The notes under the pieces were generated by a model, which was not told the DNA's origin, ran no database searches, and was given only the letters and a program-made list of their open reading frames with translations. A program made the translations under genes and the position numbers. Source: a phage. From it: a stretch of DNA of 64,000 nt. Shown here piece by piece: positions 2,571-13,062 of the stretch (positions are counted from its first letter, which is position 1; each line of letters begins with the position of its first letter). The stretch is taken from the sequence record PX880101.1; one strand, given 5' to 3'.

Positions 2571-3155
2571 ATGAAAATACTTCAAGAGTTTAAACTTTAC
2601 CAACCGGGATCTGGCGAATACCACGCCAACAAGGAAACCAAGGAGCTGACCCCTCAAGAGGTTGAGGACTACACCGCATACACTGGGTATTTTTTACGTA
2701 ATGATGATGGCGATTGGTATGTGCAGTCACGAACATTACGACAAGAAAATCCGGGTTGTATCTTCCTACTTGTTGACGAGAAGGGAATTCTTAAGACATC
2801 TACAGAAGAACCTGATGCCTTATGGCCTGCTCCAGGTCTTCGTGTGGTTATCGCCAAAAAAGAAGAGGTACCAGAAAACATTATGCTTCACCACGACGCT
2901 TTGCGTTTAGTTGGTGATGAATTTGTCACAGACAATGAATTCTTTGTTCAACAGGCAGAGGGTGTCATAGAGACAGAACTTGCTTGGGCTACTGCTAGAA
3001 TTGGTGCCTATCAAGACATGATTGACCTTGAATATGATCTTACTGATGACCAGAAACGCAACATCAGAGATTTGAAAATGTACAGGGTAAAACTTCTTGA
3101 AATAGATACATCTAAAGCCCCTGACATTTTCTTCCCGGAGCGACCTACCCTCTAA
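2571..3155 (+). CDS. putative tail fibre assembly/chaperone protein
   Basis: 194-aa ORF directly after a fibre gene, strong RBS; size and position fit Tfa-like chaperones; assignment is positional. Confidence 0.35.
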   Translation: MKILQEFKLYQPGSGEYHANKETKELTPQEVEDYTAYTGYFLRNDDGDWYVQSRTLRQENPGCIFLLVDEKGILKTSTEEPDALWPAPGLRVVIAKKEEVPENIMLHHDALRLVGDEFVTDNEFFVQQAEGVIETELAWATARIGAYQDMIDLEYDLTDDQKRNIRDLKMYRVKLLEIDTSKAPDIFFPERPTL

Positions 3156-3568: not shown

Positions 3569-4615
3569 GTGATGACTAAACCAGTTATCCCTCTTGATAT
3601 TTGGGCCAATCAGGATGTTGTGCTTGAAAATACAGGAGAGTTGAACAAATCTCAACCGAGCAAAGAAGAGAGATTGAAAGGTTGGGATATGACACAAAGG
3701 ATAGCATGTGAAGTTGTTAACTTTGAACTCCATATGCTCTCTGCGTGGCTAAAGCATTTAACAGAAGATGTTGTCCCTGGATGGGATAATAGATTCTTAA
3801 GGGTCACTAATAATCTGGCAGACGTTCCAGACAAAGCTGCTGCACGTAAAGTTCTCAATGTATACTCGCCTGAAGAAATGGATGACCTTTATGTTGACAA
3901 GACTGGAGACACAATGATCCAGACTCAAACTTTAGGTCTTCAAAGAATTGAGTTTGCATCTGCGTCAACAGACAATGCGGCGATATACACCACCATAACT
4001 CCAGACAAGACGATGATGGATTTCTGGATTATGGACAACATCGGTGGCGCTGACGGCACAGACCTTGATGATCCTTCTCACCAAATAGATGGTTTCCGTT
4101 GGAGATTTCAACCTTCTGGTGGGCAGCCTGTGTTTTCGGCTATGAAGCTCAATGCTATAACTGCCAACCGTGCAAGACTGGCTATCCAAGGAAATCTTGA
4201 ATGCAATGATGCAAAAAGCTCCTCTGCAAATGCCAATGCGGTAACGATACCAAGAGCCACTGTTAATGGACAACAATCCTGCGGCAGCGCTCAAATAGGT
4301 GGAAGAGTAGATTGTAACGATAAAACCGCCAGGGGTCAATATGCAACAGTTGGTGGGAGAAACGTGGTCCGCAGGGTAAATGGTAGTAGCGCAGATAGCA
4401 GTGGTAACCTTACTATCCCTATGCCTAGTAGAGGTGTTGAAGATGTAAGGATAGCAAACCGCTTCAGAACCACCTACAGAGAATCAAGAGTATACCCTGG
4501 GCATGTAATGTGCTCCGGCAATTACGCCTATAAACACCCGTATCAAGGCGACTATTGGACTGGTGCCATTCAAAAATTTGTAAACGGTCAATGGATCACG
4601 ATATCTTATGCTTAA
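3569..4615 (+). CDS. tail fibre protein (paralog B)
   Basis: RBS aggaga; shares N-terminal PLxIWAxxD, AARKVLNV, GDTM, FRWRFQP, LNAITANRA and C-terminal FVNGQWITISYA with the 1516-2556 product. Confidence 0.6.
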   Translation: MMTKPVIPLDIWANQDVVLENTGELNKSQPSKEERLKGWDMTQRIACEVVNFELHMLSAWLKHLTEDVVPGWDNRFLRVTNNLADVPDKAAARKVLNVYSPEEMDDLYVDKTGDTMIQTQTLGLQRIEFASASTDNAAIYTTITPDKTMMDFWIMDNIGGADGTDLDDPSHQIDGFRWRFQPSGGQPVFSAMKLNAITANRARLAIQGNLECNDAKSSSANANAVTIPRATVNGQQSCGSAQIGGRVDCNDKTARGQYATVGGRNVVRRVNGSSADSSGNLTIPMPSRGVEDVRIANRFRTTYRESRVYPGHVMCSGNYAYKHPYQGDYWTGAIQKFVNGQWITISYA

Positions 4616-4900: not shown

Positions 4901-6646
4901 ATGGCGCAAGACATGACAAGCTTCGAGCAGGCGGTAGATCAAGTAATTGTTGATTCTGAACGTTTGCACTTGATTGTCAACGGTAACGCTGTGGATGAAG
5001 TTGTCGTAGAGGATGGGACCACTATCCCTACGGTACGAAAAGCCATGCTTGACACCCTTTATTTTAAAACGCCACCAATCCCTTGGGCGTATGGTGCATC
5101 CACAACAGTTTTTAACCAGTTGTATGAGTTTAAAGGGGATACAGGCACTCAGTGGTGGTACGCCCCAGCAGCATCAAAATCTAACCCGGTTAGGATGCCA
5201 GCAGATCCTTCACAATCTCCGAACTGGAGATTATATACCGATTCTGCAGTAATGGCAAAATACTACGCAAAACTTAACAGTCCAAGGTTCGAAGGTGACC
5301 CGAGAGTACCTACACCTCCAATGGACGATAAGTCCGAATCTATAGCAAACACAGAGTTTGTTGTTGACTATGTGGATAGCATATTTAAAGCCATGGAGGG
5401 GATGAAAGTTACTGTAGGATCTTTGGTGGTAAAAGGTCTTACAGAACTTGCCAACACCATAGTTGGGGGCACCCTTACCTTACACGGACCTGTTAATGGA
5501 GCAGATTCTACTGCACGCTTCAGGAACCTAATCCTTACGGCAAATACTTCTACACTAACTTTTGCGTGGAGCGATCCTAAGCATGCAGACTGGAGAAGCA
5601 CAGAGCTGCAACCTCATGAAGTATCAACTCACAGAGTTATAGCTGACACTATAACTTCTGGGAAACCAGTGGCTAATAACAACGATGTGCATTTTGATGG
5701 TCTAGGTAATAACTTTTTTGACTACGTGTACATTCGTGGTAATGCCATGAAGGCAGCCACCGAACCGACATTGCAGGTTGATGGGACCACCAGGGTTAAG
5801 AACCTTGAGGTGACAGGCACCGTTACAGGGATAACCTACTCTGTAGATGGCACCATGATCTACCCTAGCTATATTGAAAGCACGGGAGATGCACTGATCA
5901 ATGGAGATTTAGAGGTTGGTGGATCTATAGTCATTCGTGGCACAGCATCTGTCCAGAACATATCTTTAAATACTCTGAGGGTGAATGAGCGTGCCACTTT
6001 TGAAGGAGAGGGGCTTACAGCCAACAAAGGTGTAATTACCGAGCTGACAACCACCACTCTAACTGCAACAACTGCAAACTCTGAAAACTGCAACGTTACC
6101 AGAAACTTGCAGGTAAATGGAGATGTTAGTTTAAACGCAGCAGGGACGGGCACCACCTACCTTCACAACCTTGAAATATCAGGTACAGTGACTGGGTGGC
6201 TGCCAGACTTCTCTAATGTCAACTTTGTCTGTAATGGCATTAACTCCAGTGGCAAGATAACCACCTCTCAAGAAATTGAAGCTGGTAAAACTATTACTGC
6301 CCCTGCTTTCCATGCAGGGAAGGTGGAGTTTGACTTAGAGGAGGCTGACGCATCTAGTGGGACATGGACACCTAACGGGCAGGCCAATATGTATGTTGTC
6401 CACGCGAAAGGGGATTTTACAATAGGGCAATGGCCTGGAACATCGGCTGAAGATAAACCTTACCCGTTCACTGCAATCATCTATGTCATTCAAGATGCTG
6501 TAGGCCACAACGTGACTTTACACGATAAATATGCCATACTGTCGGCTACTCCTGTTATTAACAACAAAGCCAACAGTGTCACCTTGCTACAATTGACATA
6601 TTGTGGTGTTGGTGATATTGTGGATGTGGTTATTGCACAACGTTAA
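4901..6646 (+). CDS. tail fibre protein
   Basis: RBS aaggag; N-terminal SPRFEGDPRVPTPP…SESIANTEFV resembles the conserved tail-fibre N-terminal attachment motif (PTAPT…TQIATTAFV); repetitive Thr/Gly/Asn-rich shaft. Confidence 0.6.
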   Translation: MAQDMTSFEQAVDQVIVDSERLHLIVNGNAVDEVVVEDGTTIPTVRKAMLDTLYFKTPPIPWAYGASTTVFNQLYEFKGDTGTQWWYAPAASKSNPVRMPADPSQSPNWRLYTDSAVMAKYYAKLNSPRFEGDPRVPTPPMDDKSESIANTEFVVDYVDSIFKAMEGMKVTVGSLVVKGLTELANTIVGGTLTLHGPVNGADSTARFRNLILTANTSTLTFAWSDPKHADWRSTELQPHEVSTHRVIADTITSGKPVANNNDVHFDGLGNNFFDYVYIRGNAMKAATEPTLQVDGTTRVKNLEVTGTVTGITYSVDGTMIYPSYIESTGDALINGDLEVGGSIVIRGTASVQNISLNTLRVNERATFEGEGLTANKGVITELTTTTLTATTANSENCNVTRNLQVNGDVSLNAAGTGTTYLHNLEISGTVTGWLPDFSNVNFVCNGINSSGKITTSQEIEAGKTITAPAFHAGKVEFDLEEADASSGTWTPNGQANMYVVHAKGDFTIGQWPGTSAEDKPYPFTAIIYVIQDAVGHNVTLHDKYAILSATPVINNKANSVTLLQLTYCGVGDIVDVVIAQR

Positions 6647-6655
6647 TATATCTGA

Positions 6656-6680
6656 CCGCTCCTGACGGGGCGGTTTTCTT
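6656..6680 (+). terminator. intrinsic terminator-like hairpin between fibre gene and giant gene
   Basis: ccgctcc-tgac-ggggcgg stem-loop followed by ttttctt. Confidence 0.45.
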
Positions 6681-6694
6681 ATCTGGAGAACACA

Positions 6695-9600
6695 ATGCTT
6701 CCAATCCCTTTGCTAAAACTTGGTCGTCATTTCCTCGATAAGAGGGGTGGAGTTAAGGAACTTGCTGTTCTGTCATACCCAATAGACAACAGTGACGGTA
6801 CAAGCACTACAGTAGCTTATGTAAATAGCTTAGCTATACTTTTTGACGACGGTCAGCTTAATATTACTGGCTATAACAAGTTCGGGGAGTGTCGCACTGG
6901 GGATCGTAACCCTATAAACTACCCGAGCGAGACGGCCTGGAATGTTGATCATGTGTGGAGAGCAGACCGTGCGTTTGTGATCCGGACTTTTGATAACCAG
7001 TTTTTCTACATCGGCTGCACTGCAGGTCTTATCGGATCCACTGCGGCAGGTGGTAACGATGTTTGCGTAAACGAGTGGACACCTCTTCCGGAACAGATTG
7101 TTAAAGGGTTACACCTTGACACGCACCCAGAGCGCCTTGTTGAGGTGATGGGGGGTATTAACAACACTGTTTGGGTTATTGCAGAGGCAGAAGGCACTGG
7201 CATACTGAACCTGTATGGATCTGGTAACAACACCTACGGATCTTTGCATGTAGATAAAAACCAGCATGCAACTCCTGTAAAGATTGGTGAAACATCGGAA
7301 AATCCTGAAACAGGTCCTTGGAAAAACCCAAGCATTAACTGTGAGGTGCATGATAACTCTGTTATTTTCGGTGGTCCTAGAGGTTTCTGGATTGCTGGGT
7401 ACGACTTTCTGAGAAACAATAGTAGAAACACTCTCGTTTGGCCTCCTGCTCAGATTACCCGTGACGATTTGAGAGGAATTCCTGCAGATGAGGAGTGGAA
7501 AGGGTTCATGTGCGGTCCGAATGGGGCAGTGGTTGCAACACAAAGAATGCACAGACCTGATGACCAACAACTTGTTAACGTATTTTATGGTCAAAACGTT
7601 TGGGGAGATGATACCTGGCGTGCTTTGAATATAACCTACACCCATGAGGTGATAATGGCTCGTGGGTACGGCACAAGTGGCATTTTCTTCAACAATGGTA
7701 CTAAGCAGTATCGTGGCTTCTCTCGAAACCTGTGCAACGATATTGGCGCACAATCTGCAAACAATAACCCCCGTGCCGATTTTGTTCATTACCAGGCCCT
7801 TGCTACGGCTAAATATGTTGAGCAACGTTTGCCAGTTAGCTGGACAGAGAGTGTTTATTTCCAAGGCATCCATAGAGAAGGTTTTTTAGGGACCTTTACT
7901 GTTGTTAATGGTAAACTTTGGTGGTCAGGTATCCCAAGGGGAAGTTTTGCAGGCTCTAATAACCTGTTTGGCGGCAGACTTAATAGTCAAGGGTTCACAG
8001 AGGTTCCTGAGAATTGGTATAAAAATGTCCCAGTAGATAGTTGGGGTGTTGATGATATTTTTGACGTTAACGGTGTTAGCAGCGTTAGCAATATTTACAT
8101 TGGTGACACGGTCAAGATGAAATTGAAGCCTCAGCCAGAGGGGGCTACGTTCATTATTGACAAGATTGAGCTGGTAAATGCTGCGGGTACGGTTGTTACA
8201 GATGCAAATTACCAATTCTCCACCAACTGGAACCACGGCGGGGCCAACGAAGTTGTTGTTACTCAGTATAACAGGAATGTTAACAGACGTGGCCTGTACT
8301 CTGTAAAAATAACCTATCATGACAAGCATGGCACAGGAAGAACTCACACGACAAGGACTTTGAACTGGAACACCATAGTTCCTGCGTATCCTTCTGACGG
8401 TAAGTGGCATACCGTTGGTAGAAACAAGCAGTTCCATGTTAACGATACTGTATACTTCGGGCTGAATGGGACTCAGCCTGCGGTAGAAGGAGATACATCG
8501 TATATGGTCCGACTCCACAGAATGGATGCTGGATCAGTCACCTATGATGTTACCCAAGAGATTTATGATCAGAGACGAAATACCTACAACAACTTAGTGC
8601 AGACACAGGCCGTATGGGAGTTCAACCCTAACGGCAGAGGCGGTAAAATGTTGCAGGTTAACGAGCAAAACGGAACGTCGTTGACTGTCCACGAACACCC
8701 AGACCCTTGGCCTGATCCTGGAAAACCTCACCCAGGTGCTCGTACACTGAAAATTGTCAGCCATGATGCAGGATATTTCGGAATACGCTGGGAAGCCACA
8801 GTAAGATATGCCGACGGGACAACAAACAACATAGGGATTACACTTGGAGGCACTAGTGAAGATAGCTCTCTGAAAATTGCCTACACTCCTAGAGGTATTT
8901 CTATTGATAATATGGATGTTGTTCGCAACGGTTACGGGGATGTGAACATCAAAGTTACTCTTGGTGAACATCTTGGCGGGGAAAGGATCATCATGTACGC
9001 CTTTGATCACGACCCACGCACTGACGGAACCTATGCAGACCAAGCGTGGAGCTACCTGATAAGCGCACCTGAGCCAAATACCAAAGAATTCTACTACGGT
9101 ATGAAACGGGATGTGTGCAAGAAAACAGGGACACATGACTGGATTGCAATCTGCGTTAAAGATGAACGTACCGCTTGGGACGAGCCTGTTAACAGATGGT
9201 TCATAGGAATTCCCACTCGAAGTGATAAATACGTTGAAGAATATATTGTATGCATGGGCGGCACCAACCTCAACATGTGTTGGAACGAGGATGCAAACAA
9301 ATACTCTGATTACGATTATATGAGGGATTACTCTTGCAATCAATGGTTTAACCAAACCGGGTATGCTAATCGACAGTCAAGAGTAAACCCTGCAATCTTT
9401 ACAGATACGCAGGTTTTCTTGACAAAACAGGCCAACGAGGTTCAGACCTTCAAGAACAAATACGACCCTAACAAGTGGTTTTATAACTGTTATGGCGCAT
9501 TTTTCTGGGGGCCAGGGGAACTGCCTAACGGGGGATCTTGCTTCGAGGCTGCAACTTACGCCAGTGATTACATCATGGGGCAGGTTAAGAAGTATAAGAT

Positions 9601-12328
9601 AATTCCAGGGCCTGAAACTCTTGGTAATGCCGTTGATCCTTATATCATCATGACTGCGCTGAGATCAAACATGGACGGGACATCTATGTCTATGCAGATC
9701 CCAGTAACAAATGGGTACAAACGTGTCGTGATGATTATTAAGTGTGACTTAATAGGTAAACAAGTCCTTGCAGAAAACGGGACCTCCACACATCCTTTTG
9801 AAATTGCTCTGCACTATCAGTTTGCTGACTCACCTTTTTCAGGAGATAAGCGAATATCTGATACAGATGCGCAGCGTTGTAAGAAGGTATTGTTGGGTGC
9901 AGGTTGGTGGTGGTATGAATTTGATTTAACAGACAAATTCACCGACACGTCAAAAGTTGTAACAGGACTTCGTCTAGACCTTGGCGAGAACATGCACAAA
10001 GCTGTTTGTGATGGCACCTATGGTGACCCTACAGTATATCTGAAGTATGTCTCTTTTGAGCATCCGGAAGATGTTGTTTACGGTCCAAAACTGAGATTGT
10101 TTGGCAGTTGGATTGCAAAAGACAGGGTAGGCATGGGTAAAAAGGTAAGAGGGTTCTTGGTTGATGCAGGAACAGAAGACATGCTGGTTAATGCAGTGTG
10201 GCCTGAATTACCTGGGACTCAGTGGGATAACTCAGCCAAGTCTATAAACTGGTTCAACATTCACAGAGCTATGTGGACCACTAACTGCTATTTGTGGAGA
10301 GAGCTTAACGATCAGGCTTTTGGCTTCAGTAACGGCAGAAGGATGGCGATCATTTGCTGGACAACGCTGCAAAGATGTTATGACCATGACTACGAGATTG
10401 GGGGCAGGGCATGGAAAAACATCAGGGATAGAATCATAACCAATTTTGCAGACGACAACGGCGGTGGAGCACATAACTTCGGCACAAGTAGACTTATTCA
10501 CTTGAATGGGTCATCCGCGTATAAGAAAGAGGGTTACTCCGGATCCATGATCGAGTGGGGTCTGGTGAAAGATGCTCGCGTATTGATGGGTCAACAACTT
10601 GCTGCTGCAATAGGTCCTAACGCAGTGCAGTCTGTTAAGCCAGCGTGGTTCGATATACCAATATGGTCATCTGGAACACCGGGAACTGCGGCAATCAACC
10701 CTACCACGGGGGATTTGGAAATCTCTTGGGAGGACTTAAAGCAGGTTGGTGGCTGGGATAAGACAGGGTACCAGGTACAATGGTGGAGATCTGACGGATC
10801 GTTAGCAGCTGATGAGTTTGTTAAGGACAATTTCTACACTATGTCCTCTGCAAAAGCCCAGCAATTGTTTGGTCAGGCCACTCCGTCAACAATCACCATG
10901 TCTATGTGTTGTAAAGACAACAGAACTGGAGCTTTGGGACCAAGGGTTGCTAAAGTTTTCTCAGGTATTAAATGGAATCTCCCTGTTCAAAGTGTTTCAT
11001 GGAAGCAAATAGGTGATAACAAGCTACTGGTTACTCCCGCCTGCCAGTTCAACGCAACCCTCAACGTTGATCCGGCTGTTGCAGCAAACTCAGCTAAAGC
11101 TTCTGACTTCTCTGTGTCTAACACTGCCATGGCAGATGTGAGAAAGATTGATACACTGAATGCCAGAATTACCTGTAAAAACACTTATGGCACATTCCAG
11201 ATCATCAACAACTTCACAGATTCTGATTCTAAGGTAGTGAGGACAGCAAGCCAGACTATGCAGTTGGGAACTCTGGCATACTCTGCCTTGATCACTGAAC
11301 AATCTCCTACCCTTCAGGGTGGGGGTGTTGGTAAGTTGATCACAACACCTGTGTGGAAGCCAAATGAGTGGGTTGTGTTTGATTTGACTGTAGACTTCTC
11401 CAGTGACAATAACTGGACATGGGTAAGGAATTGCTTGTCACAGTTGATGGGTGGTCCAAGCTCTGTTAGTGATAGCCACGACTCTACTGACCCGAGCGTG
11501 TTCCAGGTGGGTAAAACTCACCCAGAAACTGGGGCACAGTTGCCTGACAGGAAGTATGCTTTGGTTTGCATCTCCAACGGCAAGGCAGATGTAACCTTCT
11601 CAGGGACACACGCATATAACGGCACTTACAACTTCTCTAAAAAGTACAGCCTCAAGGCAGGTAACATTGTAGATGAAGTTGGTGCGTTGTATAATCCAGG
11701 TAACGGCATAGGGATTGTGGGCGGTAAACTGCAGATGCAGGAACCTTCTATTACCCCTTCCAATGTGCCAGGGATTAGAAAGACTTGGGAAAGTAGTAAT
11801 ACTAACATTGCAACAGTGGATGCTACCACAGGATTGGTAACATTTAAAGCCCCTGGTAATGTCACTATAAAGTTTGTAGTTACGGATGATGCAGGCCGCA
11901 AAACGTCTTCAACATCTTTCACTGTCAGACAGATGGCACCTCAGTGGAGAATGTGGATAGGCACAGCAACAAACGGGGCATACCCTAATCCGGCAGGGAC
12001 TTCTGGTATGAAGACTTTCTCTACAAGCAAGCCGATGGAGTACGGCAGCGGTCCTAAGGTAGGGCAGATGGTGTACTTTGGTGCATATATTCCTGAAATT
12101 ATAGGGCTTCCGAGAAGTCAGCTTCAGTTGCTGTTTGGAGCTGGTGTTGACGAGCTTGCCACTTTTGGGTATAGCGACAACATCGAGGCTGCAAGGAGTT
12201 CCGGATGGGTAGGGTTCAGAATGGAGTCTGGAAAGGAAGGCAGGATTCTAGGGACAGCCTCTATAGGTGTTATGTTCCCTGGTGACCAGCAGTATCGTCT
12301 GGGAGCCTACGCGACTTTCTCTCTTTAA
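6695..12328 (+). CDS. giant virion-associated protein (1877 aa) with C-terminal Ig-like (Big_2-type) domain
   Basis: Uninterrupted 5.6-kb ORF, RBS ggag; Trp/Gly/Asn-rich, not coiled-coil biased; C-terminal segment ATVDATTGLVTFKAPGNVTIKFVVTDDAGRKTSSTSFTV resembles bacterial Ig-like domains; last gene of the structural block. Confidence 0.55.
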   Translation: MLPIPLLKLGRHFLDKRGGVKELAVLSYPIDNSDGTSTTVAYVNSLAILFDDGQLNITGYNKFGECRTGDRNPINYPSETAWNVDHVWRADRAFVIRTFDNQFFYIGCTAGLIGSTAAGGNDVCVNEWTPLPEQIVKGLHLDTHPERLVEVMGGINNTVWVIAEAEGTGILNLYGSGNNTYGSLHVDKNQHATPVKIGETSENPETGPWKNPSINCEVHDNSVIFGGPRGFWIAGYDFLRNNSRNTLVWPPAQITRDDLRGIPADEEWKGFMCGPNGAVVATQRMHRPDDQQLVNVFYGQNVWGDDTWRALNITYTHEVIMARGYGTSGIFFNNGTKQYRGFSRNLCNDIGAQSANNNPRADFVHYQALATAKYVEQRLPVSWTESVYFQGIHREGFLGTFTVVNGKLWWSGIPRGSFAGSNNLFGGRLNSQGFTEVPENWYKNVPVDSWGVDDIFDVNGVSSVSNIYIGDTVKMKLKPQPEGATFIIDKIELVNAAGTVVTDANYQFSTNWNHGGANEVVVTQYNRNVNRRGLYSVKITYHDKHGTGRTHTTRTLNWNTIVPAYPSDGKWHTVGRNKQFHVNDTVYFGLNGTQPAVEGDTSYMVRLHRMDAGSVTYDVTQEIYDQRRNTYNNLVQTQAVWEFNPNGRGGKMLQVNEQNGTSLTVHEHPDPWPDPGKPHPGARTLKIVSHDAGYFGIRWEATVRYADGTTNNIGITLGGTSEDSSLKIAYTPRGISIDNMDVVRNGYGDVNIKVTLGEHLGGERIIMYAFDHDPRTDGTYADQAWSYLISAPEPNTKEFYYGMKRDVCKKTGTHDWIAICVKDERTAWDEPVNRWFIGIPTRSDKYVEEYIVCMGGTNLNMCWNEDANKYSDYDYMRDYSCNQWFNQTGYANRQSRVNPAIFTDTQVFLTKQANEVQTFKNKYDPNKWFYNCYGAFFWGPGELPNGGSCFEAATYASDYIMGQVKKYKIIPGPETLGNAVDPYIIMTALRSNMDGTSMSMQIPVTNGYKRVVMIIKCDLIGKQVLAENGTSTHPFEIALHYQFADSPFSGDKRISDTDAQRCKKVLLGAGWWWYEFDLTDKFTDTSKVVTGLRLDLGENMHKAVCDGTYGDPTVYLKYVSFEHPEDVVYGPKLRLFGSWIAKDRVGMGKKVRGFLVDAGTEDMLVNAVWPELPGTQWDNSAKSINWFNIHRAMWTTNCYLWRELNDQAFGFSNGRRMAIICWTTLQRCYDHDYEIGGRAWKNIRDRIITNFADDNGGGAHNFGTSRLIHLNGSSAYKKEGYSGSMIEWGLVKDARVLMGQQLAAAIGPNAVQSVKPAWFDIPIWSSGTPGTAAINPTTGDLEISWEDLKQVGGWDKTGYQVQWWRSDGSLAADEFVKDNFYTMSSAKAQQLFGQATPSTITMSMCCKDNRTGALGPRVAKVFSGIKWNLPVQSVSWKQIGDNKLLVTPACQFNATLNVDPAVAANSAKASDFSVSNTAMADVRKIDTLNARITCKNTYGTFQIINNFTDSDSKVVRTASQTMQLGTLAYSALITEQSPTLQGGGVGKLITTPVWKPNEWVVFDLTVDFSSDNNWTWVRNCLSQLMGGPSSVSDSHDSTDPSVFQVGKTHPETGAQLPDRKYALVCISNGKADVTFSGTHAYNGTYNFSKKYSLKAGNIVDEVGALYNPGNGIGIVGGKLQMQEPSITPSNVPGIRKTWESSNTNIATVDATTGLVTFKAPGNVTIKFVVTDDAGRKTSSTSFTVRQMAPQWRMWIGTATNGAYPNPAGTSGMKTFSTSKPMEYGSGPKVGQMVYFGAYIPEIIGLPRSQLQLLFGAGVDELATFGYSDNIEAARSSGWVGFRMESGKEGRILGTASIGVMFPGDQQYRLGAYATFSL

Positions 12329-12375: not shown

Positions 12376-12576
12376 TTAGTAATACTCCCAACATGCCCCA
12401 TCTTCAGACGGCTTGACGCGCTTACCTTTATGGTCAACATAGGTATAGCCACAACCTTCACAAATAACAGGTGCCGCATAACCTTCCTTCCACTGGTCTT
12501 CTGTGATCAGTCCTTCCAGATCTCTGCAGTCAAAACCAAACAACTCTTCAGAACAATCTTTGCAAAAATCAGCCAT
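12376..12576 (-). CDS. zinc-ribbon protein
   Basis: 66 aa with CKDC…C…CEGC cysteine pairs; RBS gagga. Confidence 0.5.
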   Translation of the reverse strand: MADFCKDCSEELFGFDCRDLEGLITEDQWKEGYAAPVICEGCGYTYVDHKGKRVKPSEDGACWEYY

Positions 12577-12579
12577 TTC

Positions 12580-13062
12580 TCAGTCCTCGCATTTAACAAA
12601 TTTTTCTACAGATCCACCAAGCACAGCTTGTTGTTTGATGGCACTTACTTCATCATAGTGGATAGACTTATGTTCCGTACCTCCGAACTTACCTGTGTGG
12701 AAGGTGTGCACCCAAATCTCTTTGGGAAGGGATTTATTCTCTTCTTCCACCAATTCCCACATACCCCACAAGTGATCTGTGATATCTTTGATGAAATATC
12801 CCTCGCCGAGGTTTGTATTCACACTATAGGCCGATTCGTGATCTCCGCAAATATAACGGAAGGCAGTGTACTCTTTCCCAGGTGTGAAGTGGGTATCCAT
12901 CAGTATAGCTGTTAGAGAATTAGGGTCTCGAAAGCCCAAGAACTTTAGTTTAACAATTTCGACGTTCACACTTGCAAGATTATCCATGACAATCTCCTCT
13001 GCTTGGTTGATGAGATAATCATATATAAATCTGGTGTTGATGTCAAGCTTAATTTTAAGCAA
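12580..13062 (-). CDS. hypothetical protein
   Basis: 160-aa ORF in leftward array, 3-nt spacing to downstream gene. Confidence 0.5.
   Translation of the reverse strand: MLKIKLDINTRFIYDYLINQAEEIVMDNLASVNVEIVKLKFLGFRDPNSLTAILMDTHFTPGKEYTAFRYICGDHESAYSVNTNLGEGYFIKDITDHLWGMWELVEEENKSLPKEIWVHTFHTGKFGGTEHKSIHYDEVSAIKQQAVLGGSVEKFVKCED

Follow-up and report, generated by a model that had tools for sequence, protein, structure and literature searches.

What kind of protein does a phage encode in the single 1877-codon open reading frame (ORF) that closes its tail-fiber locus, and how might such a protein serve the virion? We take up this question for a 64,000-nucleotide (nt) stretch of phage DNA (sequence record PX880101.1; hereinafter the window), whose source is an rV5-like Escherichia coli myovirus (Vequintavirus). 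The ORF product, of 1877 amino acids (aa), is recognizable by its sequence as the ortholog of gp27 of phage rV5 (ORF 27; 1878 aa, 208 kDa), the last gene of the tail-fiber locus. The gene is known and already annotated, with a function that has been predicted only, and its recognition is modest as a discovery because it has been catalogued since 2013. The evidence points to an overall layout comprised of an N-terminal M-x-P-I-P peptide, an RCC1-like propeller, a long chain of immunoglobulin (Ig)-like domains interspersed with one jelly-roll resembling a carbohydrate-binding module (CBM), a Big_2 domain, and a C-terminal domain of ~125 aa. With moderate confidence, we propose that this protein is a non-essential accessory adhesin that binds glycans and is joined to the tail-fiber network, most likely in low copy.

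The ORF extends over ~5.6 kb of the plus strand with no internal stop, and the composition of its product is rich in glycine, asparagine, and tryptophan (G 9.9%, N 6.9%, W 3.0%) as against alanine, glutamate, and lysine (A 6.6%, E 3.8%, K 4.8%), both in agreement with a first-pass annotation made from the DNA letters alone. The placement of the protein in the fiber module by that annotation is likewise borne out: PHROG assigns the ORFs upstream to tail fiber, fiber assembly, and short fiber proteins, the gene is the final plus-strand member behind them, and the genes downstream switch to the minus strand. This is the syntenic position of Vequintavirus gp27, viz., the last plus-strand gene after a gp28-like fiber gene, followed by a terminator and the strand switch, and the position is also kept in EmilHeitz, MaxBurger, rV5, and a divergent metagenomic relative. 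The match to the phrog_15684 profile spans aa 1-1876 of the protein and positions 1-1877 of the 1878 in the profile (4458.7 bits), and the gene shares 98.4% DNA and 99.4% protein identity with that of Escherichia phage ECP32. The orthologs in rV5 and in the BASEL records, bas49_0041 and bas54_0041 (the orthology of the latter to the window gene having been checked and confirmed), are the same gene, being 89-99% identical at the protein level, equal in length, and situated at the same end of the fiber locus, with no essential difference from the window protein. The BASEL records label them 'lateral tail fiber protein with intimin domain'.

In the family alignment, conservation is highest over the N-terminal 440 aa. 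These open with the M-x-P-I-P motif, which is found only once across the six frames of the window and also begins the proteins encoded at the syntenic position in Phapecoctavirus, PVP-SE1, and phi92, and they are likely to continue as an RCC1-like β-propeller. The Pfam profile WD40_RLD (PF25390; RLD, RCC1-like domain) matches aa 44-199 of the query (E = 3.7e-5, or 9.4e-6 on a sub-fragment; 23.7-25.6 bits against a gathering score of 150), as it also does 12 of 20 family members, and RCC1_2 matches with E = 0.013-0.06 (13.6-15.7 bits, below the gathering score of 22); neither of these RCC1-type profiles reaches its gathering threshold in the query itself, and only ~150 residues are matched. The RCC1 profile (PF00415; gathering score 21.7) is passed by PVP-SE1 gp40 (36.1 bits) and the Phapecoctavirus homolog (24.3 bits), both of which carry Big_2, and hhalign aligns the family profile over aa 1-497 with the latter, an 891-aa 'tail protein' (probability 99.6%, E = 1e-24). 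An AlphaFold2 model of aa 1-860 has a mean predicted local distance difference test score (pLDDT) of 44.5, with aa 1-440 mostly below 50; from this low-confidence N-terminal model, Foldseek recovered the propellers of HERC1, HERC2, UVR8, and RCC1 among the top matches (E = 5e-4 and probability 1.0 for the RLDs). Seven blade-like repeats can be discerned by eye in aa 43-429, and a self-comparison of aa 1-450 with hhalign returned a single weak repeat pair (E = 0.14). The protein shares a repeat signature and fold-level matches with RCC1, the HERC1/2 RLDs, and UVR8, and the repeat signature may also link it to the stand-alone RCC1-like virion proteins of the phages W70 (W70_237-239; phrog_4219) and CB7. 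RCC1-like proteins of this kind have been confirmed as virion components by mass spectrometry (MS) in W70 and related genera.

Beyond the propeller lies the chain of β-sandwich domains. Homologs match Bact_surface_Ig-like at aa ~506-560, Foldseek retrieves Ig-string adhesins for the stretch aa 441-841, and it is in this stretch that the indels of the family alignment concentrate; structure comparison over the chain returned both Ig-string and CBM-like folds. The model of aa 735-1877 has a mean pLDDT of 58.2, aa 842-935, 1125-1329, and 1428-1526 being poorly modeled. When aa 200-1399 were compared exhaustively by HMMER with 1.84 billion representative proteins, nothing but family members came back, and hence the central 1200 residues are an orphan at the sequence level. 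Searches of PDB sequences with the protein and the family profile gave nothing beyond weak Ig-domain matches, and searches for homologs by word index, started from the N-terminal 210 aa and from a C-terminal alignment, gave near-identical fragments and two Big_2-rich proteins only, which added no depth to the alignments. With the bacterial adhesins and S-layer proteins built as strings of Ig domains (intimin/invasin, Bacillus Sap, EA1, MpIBP, and GhpA), the protein shares beads-on-a-string Ig-like sandwiches of the Big_2 type; however, the likeness is confined to single domains, and both the outer-membrane anchor and the C-type lectin tip are lacking. The NCBIfam intimin model (NF033627) reaches 21.7 bits where its cut-off is 1400, the match covering just 39 residues in a single Ig domain. 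Comparison with Ig-rich phage appendages, namely the N4 gp65 non-contractile sheath, the R4C 'Megatron', the SU10 surface protein, and T4 Hoc, revealed no sequence homology.

The first-pass annotation had placed a Big_2-like Ig segment at the C-terminus. The Pfam match is clear (PF02368; 33 bits against a gathering score of 22.8, E = 5.8e-8), as one among many β-sandwich domains of the protein, but it is not the terminus: ~145 residues lie beyond it, of which the final ~125 constitute a separate domain. Among eight orthologs, variation is greatest in this domain (aa 1751-1877; identity 0.61-0.80 versus a gene mean of 0.94), followed by the propeller segments aa 151-175 and 251-275 and then by aa 976-1000. 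Over aa 1590-1877, for which a DNA probe was also used, identity is bimodal, with 74 phage records at 90% or more and 37 at 60-80% (~78%). Between the two corresponding alleles the nonsynonymous divergence (dN) is 0.31 and the synonymous divergence (dS) is saturated, and within allele A the dS of the domain is 0.09 as against 0.3-0.9 elsewhere in the gene. The window has allele A, and allele B is found in MaxBurger, AlexBoehm, and FFH2. The tip of the protein is swapped as a single cassette, which is the usual behavior of host-recognition modules. The C-terminal part further bears a precomputed PF26918 annotation in close homologs and is matched by phrog_215.

The syntenic last gene of the fiber locus also occurs in three further genera, as homologs or remnants of widely differing size: phi92 gp152 (Justusliebigvirus) has 202 aa, PVP-SE1 gp40 (Seunavirus) 604 aa, and the Phapecoctavirus protein 891 aa, as against 1877-1976 aa in the Vequintavirus-like versions. 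In all four genera, the product of this gene combines the M-x-P-I-P start with Big_2; PVP-SE1 gp40 and Phapecoctavirus additionally share the RCC1-like propeller with the query, whereas in phi92 (NC_023693, 11321-12983) gp152 keeps the MYPIP start and the two Big_2 domains of PVP-SE1 gp40 without a propeller. As hhalign detected no significant similarity between phi92 gp152 and the family (probability 1.9%), the phi92 link rests on similarity to PVP-SE1 gp40 and the short N-terminal motif. The next ORF in that genome, gp153, is flagged in the record for having no ribosome-binding site and weak gene-call statistics. The Vequintavirus protein is 2-9x longer than these three and adds ~1400 residues without a homolog outside the family, including the CBM-like and the allelic C-terminal domains.

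The fiber genes immediately upstream show a complementary pattern in the four genera: they always end in a common domain of ~100-130 aa, while their bodies are otherwise unrelated (gp28-like in one subfamily, and Tail_spike_N with collagen repeats in the other). The domain of the window's upstream fiber is 49-51% identical to its counterparts in Phapecoctavirus (E = 6e-28) and phi92 gp151 (E = 1e-29), and is also present in PVP-SE1 gp41. The upstream gene carries the annotation PF26208/PF26209; a scan of its product with a Pfam copy lacking these two families gave no match. Since the C-terminal end of one protein and the N-terminal start of the next are conserved together while the rest varies, the sequences suggest that the C-terminal head of the upstream fiber and the M-x-P-I-P protein constitute a candidate docking pair.

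Among 50,697 phage records, the full-length protein is restricted to Vequintavirus, where identity does not fall below 89%; the gene is present at a coverage of at least 80% in 108 phage records. A collection of 5.8 billion proteins yielded 15 clusters, one of which is 74% identical over the full length. Thirteen of the 15 are 45-59% identical over aa 1-1432 and divergent through aa 1433-1583; in 11 of these, similarity returns (36-38%) at aa 1584, and the remaining two (P0008 and P0014) lack the C-terminal module. BLASTP identity with P0003-P0015 likewise ends at aa 1432 and restarts at aa 1584, which marks the intervening segment as a replaced module. The most divergent cluster sits in a fully syntenic fiber locus. 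The eight Vequintavirus orthologs average 94% identity, and as the Nei-Gojobori dN/dS is 0.04-0.06 in every region (dS 0.3-1.1), the whole protein is under purifying selection. Some deposited copies are interrupted: the phita32 ortholog (PQ758395, 151-5787) has a stop at codon 1439 and is annotated as two coding sequences (CDS), the DrSchubert ortholog (MZ501060, 78-5800) has a stop at codon 1819, and two CDS also lie under the match in ECP26, naswa, Alma, and APECc02. These copies fit either dispensability during laboratory propagation or sequencing errors. The gene is also carried, at 88-96% protein identity, by 15-16 unannotated GenBank records named 'Campylobacter phage' (MG0656xx, e.g., MG065644 and MG065682), whose host label, C. 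jejuni, is doubtful given that the genomes are 128-143 kb and Vequintavirus-like.

Several published data bear on the presence of the protein in virions and its dispensability. In HIDEN-SEQ transposon mapping of Bas54, bas54_0041 tolerates disruptive insertions, and is therefore dispensable for growth on K-12 and the production of infective virions. Although cultured phage can do without the gene, strong selection maintains it in nature. A published 8.5-kb deletion in Bas51, from the Aionostat study, for which the paper leaves the affected gene unnamed, most likely affects the same gene (bas51_0041) by its position; of direct repeats able to mediate this deletion, only chance-level matches of 14-23 nt were found. 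MS of rV5 virions recovered gp27 with 3 peptides (9 spectra, 3.1% coverage). Cryo-electron microscopy (cryo-EM) of Bas49 and Bas54 resolved three of the nine annotated fibers, near the baseplate, and the head of one fiber class touches an extra density that no modeled fiber fits. Knockouts and cryo-EM maps (EMD-51869 and EMD-51868) are available. The BASEL authors consider it unclear which genes build which fibers, and the protein of phi92 fiber II is still unassigned.

How, then, might such an adhesin work? We propose that the M-x-P-I-P peptide, with or without the propeller, would dock onto the conserved C-terminal head of the upstream fiber, that the string of Ig-like domains would provide a long and flexible spacer, and that weak, multivalent contacts with surface polysaccharides would be made by the CBM-like domain, by the loops of the propeller that vary, and by the C-terminal domain that is exchanged. 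Adsorption would be raised in this way on some hosts or in some environments, and the protein would not be needed for baseplate triggering or DNA delivery. The location, the docking, and the ligands are here what we infer, from parts and an evolutionary history that can be read off the aligned proteins.

A number of observations weigh against this proposal. All three rV5 gp27 peptides fall short of being fully tryptic, and two of them are poorly placed in the preliminary ranking, which makes the MS weak evidence. The cryo-EM of Bas49 and Bas54 does not report a gp27-type protein among the resolved fibers, the fiber class bearing the extra density is at most a candidate for the product of the upstream gene, and the place of the protein on the virion is reached by indirect reasoning. 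If the 8.5-kb deletion does hit the gene, the gene can be a net cost. With ~60% of the chain modeled at pLDDT <50 and the propeller below the Pfam gathering score in the query, the propeller and CBM assignments are provisional. Finally, the conserved junction domains of the two-gene cassette could also be recombination junctions or linkers, or reflect a shared receptor or receptor-binding head.

Ig-like decorations such as T4 Hoc bind mucin glycans, and the protein could instead be a Hoc-like, 'adherence to mucus' decoration situated elsewhere on the virion (capsid, neck, or sheath), whose Ig-like, propeller, and CBM-like domains bind gut mucus or biofilm glycans with no role in host-cell recognition. 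Its string of Ig-like domains does resemble the non-essential decorations of phages, laboratory growth does not require it and several deposited isolates carry an interrupted copy, no fiber density has been assigned to it, and the phrog_215 family matching its C-terminal part is filed by PHROG under 'head and packaging'. However, the gene is always last in the tail-fiber operon, it is paired in four genera with a fiber gene bearing the conserved C-terminal domain, its two-allele exchange at the C-terminus is typical of host-recognition modules, and the curated records say lateral tail fiber; on balance we regard a decoration as unlikely.

It is distinctly improbable that the protein is not a virion component at all, acting instead in or on the infected cell, or being the product of a decaying passenger gene. 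The dN/dS of ~0.05 across 1877 codons with high dS excludes decay in nature, the gene belongs to the late structural operon and is preceded by a good Shine-Dalgarno sequence, its domain types are those of extracellular adhesins, and by inspection the N-terminus has no hydrophobic core like that of a signal peptide. These points are to be set against the weak MS evidence, the terminator-like hairpin directly upstream, and the interrupted ORFs in phita32, DrSchubert, and others.

The view taken in the first-pass annotation, i.e., a giant tail spike or central fiber with possible depolymerase domains, here taken as the canonical homotrimer, fared poorly, and we give it very little probability. 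It could appeal to the very large size of the protein within a fiber locus, to the glycosidase and deacetylase domains in neighboring fiber genes of this phage group, and to the ~300 poorly modeled residues (aa 842-935 and 1125-1329), which could hide an enzyme. Yet profile scans and structure prediction of segments, in a chain with the low-confidence share given above, found no β-helix, hydrolase, TIM-barrel, sialidase, lyase, or peptidase-S74 profile or fold; the composition is not coiled-coil-like and the monomer predictions hold no coiled-coil signal; propeller, Ig, and CBM folds are usually monomeric; and the ortholog is dispensable, unlike what is expected of a central spike. Of the two activities suggested along with this view, glycan binding is plausible, whereas a depolymerase finds no counterpart among the folds recovered. 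A tape measure protein, for which length alone speaks, was rejected, as the first-pass annotation had also concluded, and its chances are negligible: the protein is predicted to be all-β and is W/G/N-rich, profile searches gave no tape-measure match, and in this phage group that role belongs to rV5 gp49, whose gene lies at the opposite end of the locus.

Returning to the proposed accessory adhesin, the features of its gene and the adjoining sequence are collected in Table 1. The hairpin between the upstream fiber gene and the ORF might reduce expression relative to the other fibers. A promoter-like site at 6593-6621 does not rise above shuffle expectation (19 sites found versus 15.2 expected). 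Downstream, a plus-strand ORF of 161 aa (12430-12915) has no PHROG match and is probably not a gene, since annotated relatives place small minus-strand genes in this region. Further upstream, 1516-2556 and 3569-4615 are paralogous short-tail-fiber genes (both phrog_4465), separated by a fiber-assembly chaperone (2571-3155) and a small ORF, a layout that fits descriptions of Vequintavirus.

Table 1. Features of the gp27-like gene and its flanks, in window coordinates
Feature	Position (nt)	Strand	Basis
C-terminal ~130 aa of upstream fiber gene (rV5 gp28 ortholog, ORF 4901-6646), candidate docking partner	6254-6646	+	Identity to other genera
Terminator-like hairpin between upstream fiber gene and 1877-aa ORF	6654-6675	+	Consensus scan: 9-bp stem, 6 GC pairs, T-rich tail; function putative
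Shine-Dalgarno GGAG, 6 nt 5' of ATG at 6695	6685-6688	+	Direct read of sequence
1877-aa ORF, ortholog of rV5 gp27, bas49_0041, and bas54_0041	6695-12328	+	ORF call, ATG to stop; phrog_15684
N-terminal peptide MLPIPLLKL..., M-x-P-I-P motif, candidate docking element	6695-6751	+	Invariant residues in family alignment
Likely RCC1-like β-propeller, aa ~20-440	6752-8014	+	Weak Pfam, hhalign, Foldseek; seven blades by eye
β-sandwich (Ig-like) array, aa 441-841	8015-9217	+	AlphaFold2 all-β; aa 735-841 pLDDT 60-80
Fold unassigned, aa 842-935	9218-9499	+	pLDDT <50
CBM-like β jelly-roll, aa ~936-1124	9500-10066	+	Fold match; provisional
Predicted helical, fold unassigned, aa 1125-1329	10067-10681	+	pLDDT <50; inside stretch without homolog beyond family
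β-sandwich, aa 1330-1424	10682-10966	+	pLDDT 56-78; faint fn3 match in P0002 homolog
Module replaced in distant homologs, aa 1433-1583	10991-11443	+	Identity 0.22-0.28 there
Ig-like domains including Big_2 (aa 1685-1732, nt 11747-11890)	11465-11944	+	Pfam
Exchangeable C-terminal domain, two alleles, aa 1751-1877	11945-12325	+	Ortholog comparison
Terminator-like hairpin directly 3' of stop codon	12344-12365	+	Consensus scan; rho-independent terminators at equivalent place in rV5 record

rV5-like phages are common candidates for therapy and biocontrol, with a broad host range, and the present analysis adds the fold composition of the largest protein of their fiber locus, its pattern of selection, and a cassette with a candidate docking interface. 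More speculatively, and as a possibility that we ourselves hold to be doubtful, the rV5-like and phi92-like phages may have in common a plug-in system, so far not described, located at the end of one of their lateral fibers. In it, the ~100-130-aa C-terminal fiber head (rV5 gp28, PVP-SE1 gp41, phi92 gp151) would accept M-x-P-I-P proteins, whose cargo would have expanded from a mere two Ig domains (202 aa) into an adhesin of 1900 aa that is probably monomeric and carries about ten β-sandwiches, an RCC1-like propeller, a CBM-like domain, and a swappable tip. Such a system, if true, would account for the density without an assigned protein on Vequintavirus fibers and would set gp27 apart among receptor-binding proteins by its unusually large size and atypical architecture. 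Should defined glycans prove to be ligands of the CBM-like domain and the C-terminal alleles, the gene would offer a handle for the engineering of host range or of retention in mucus.

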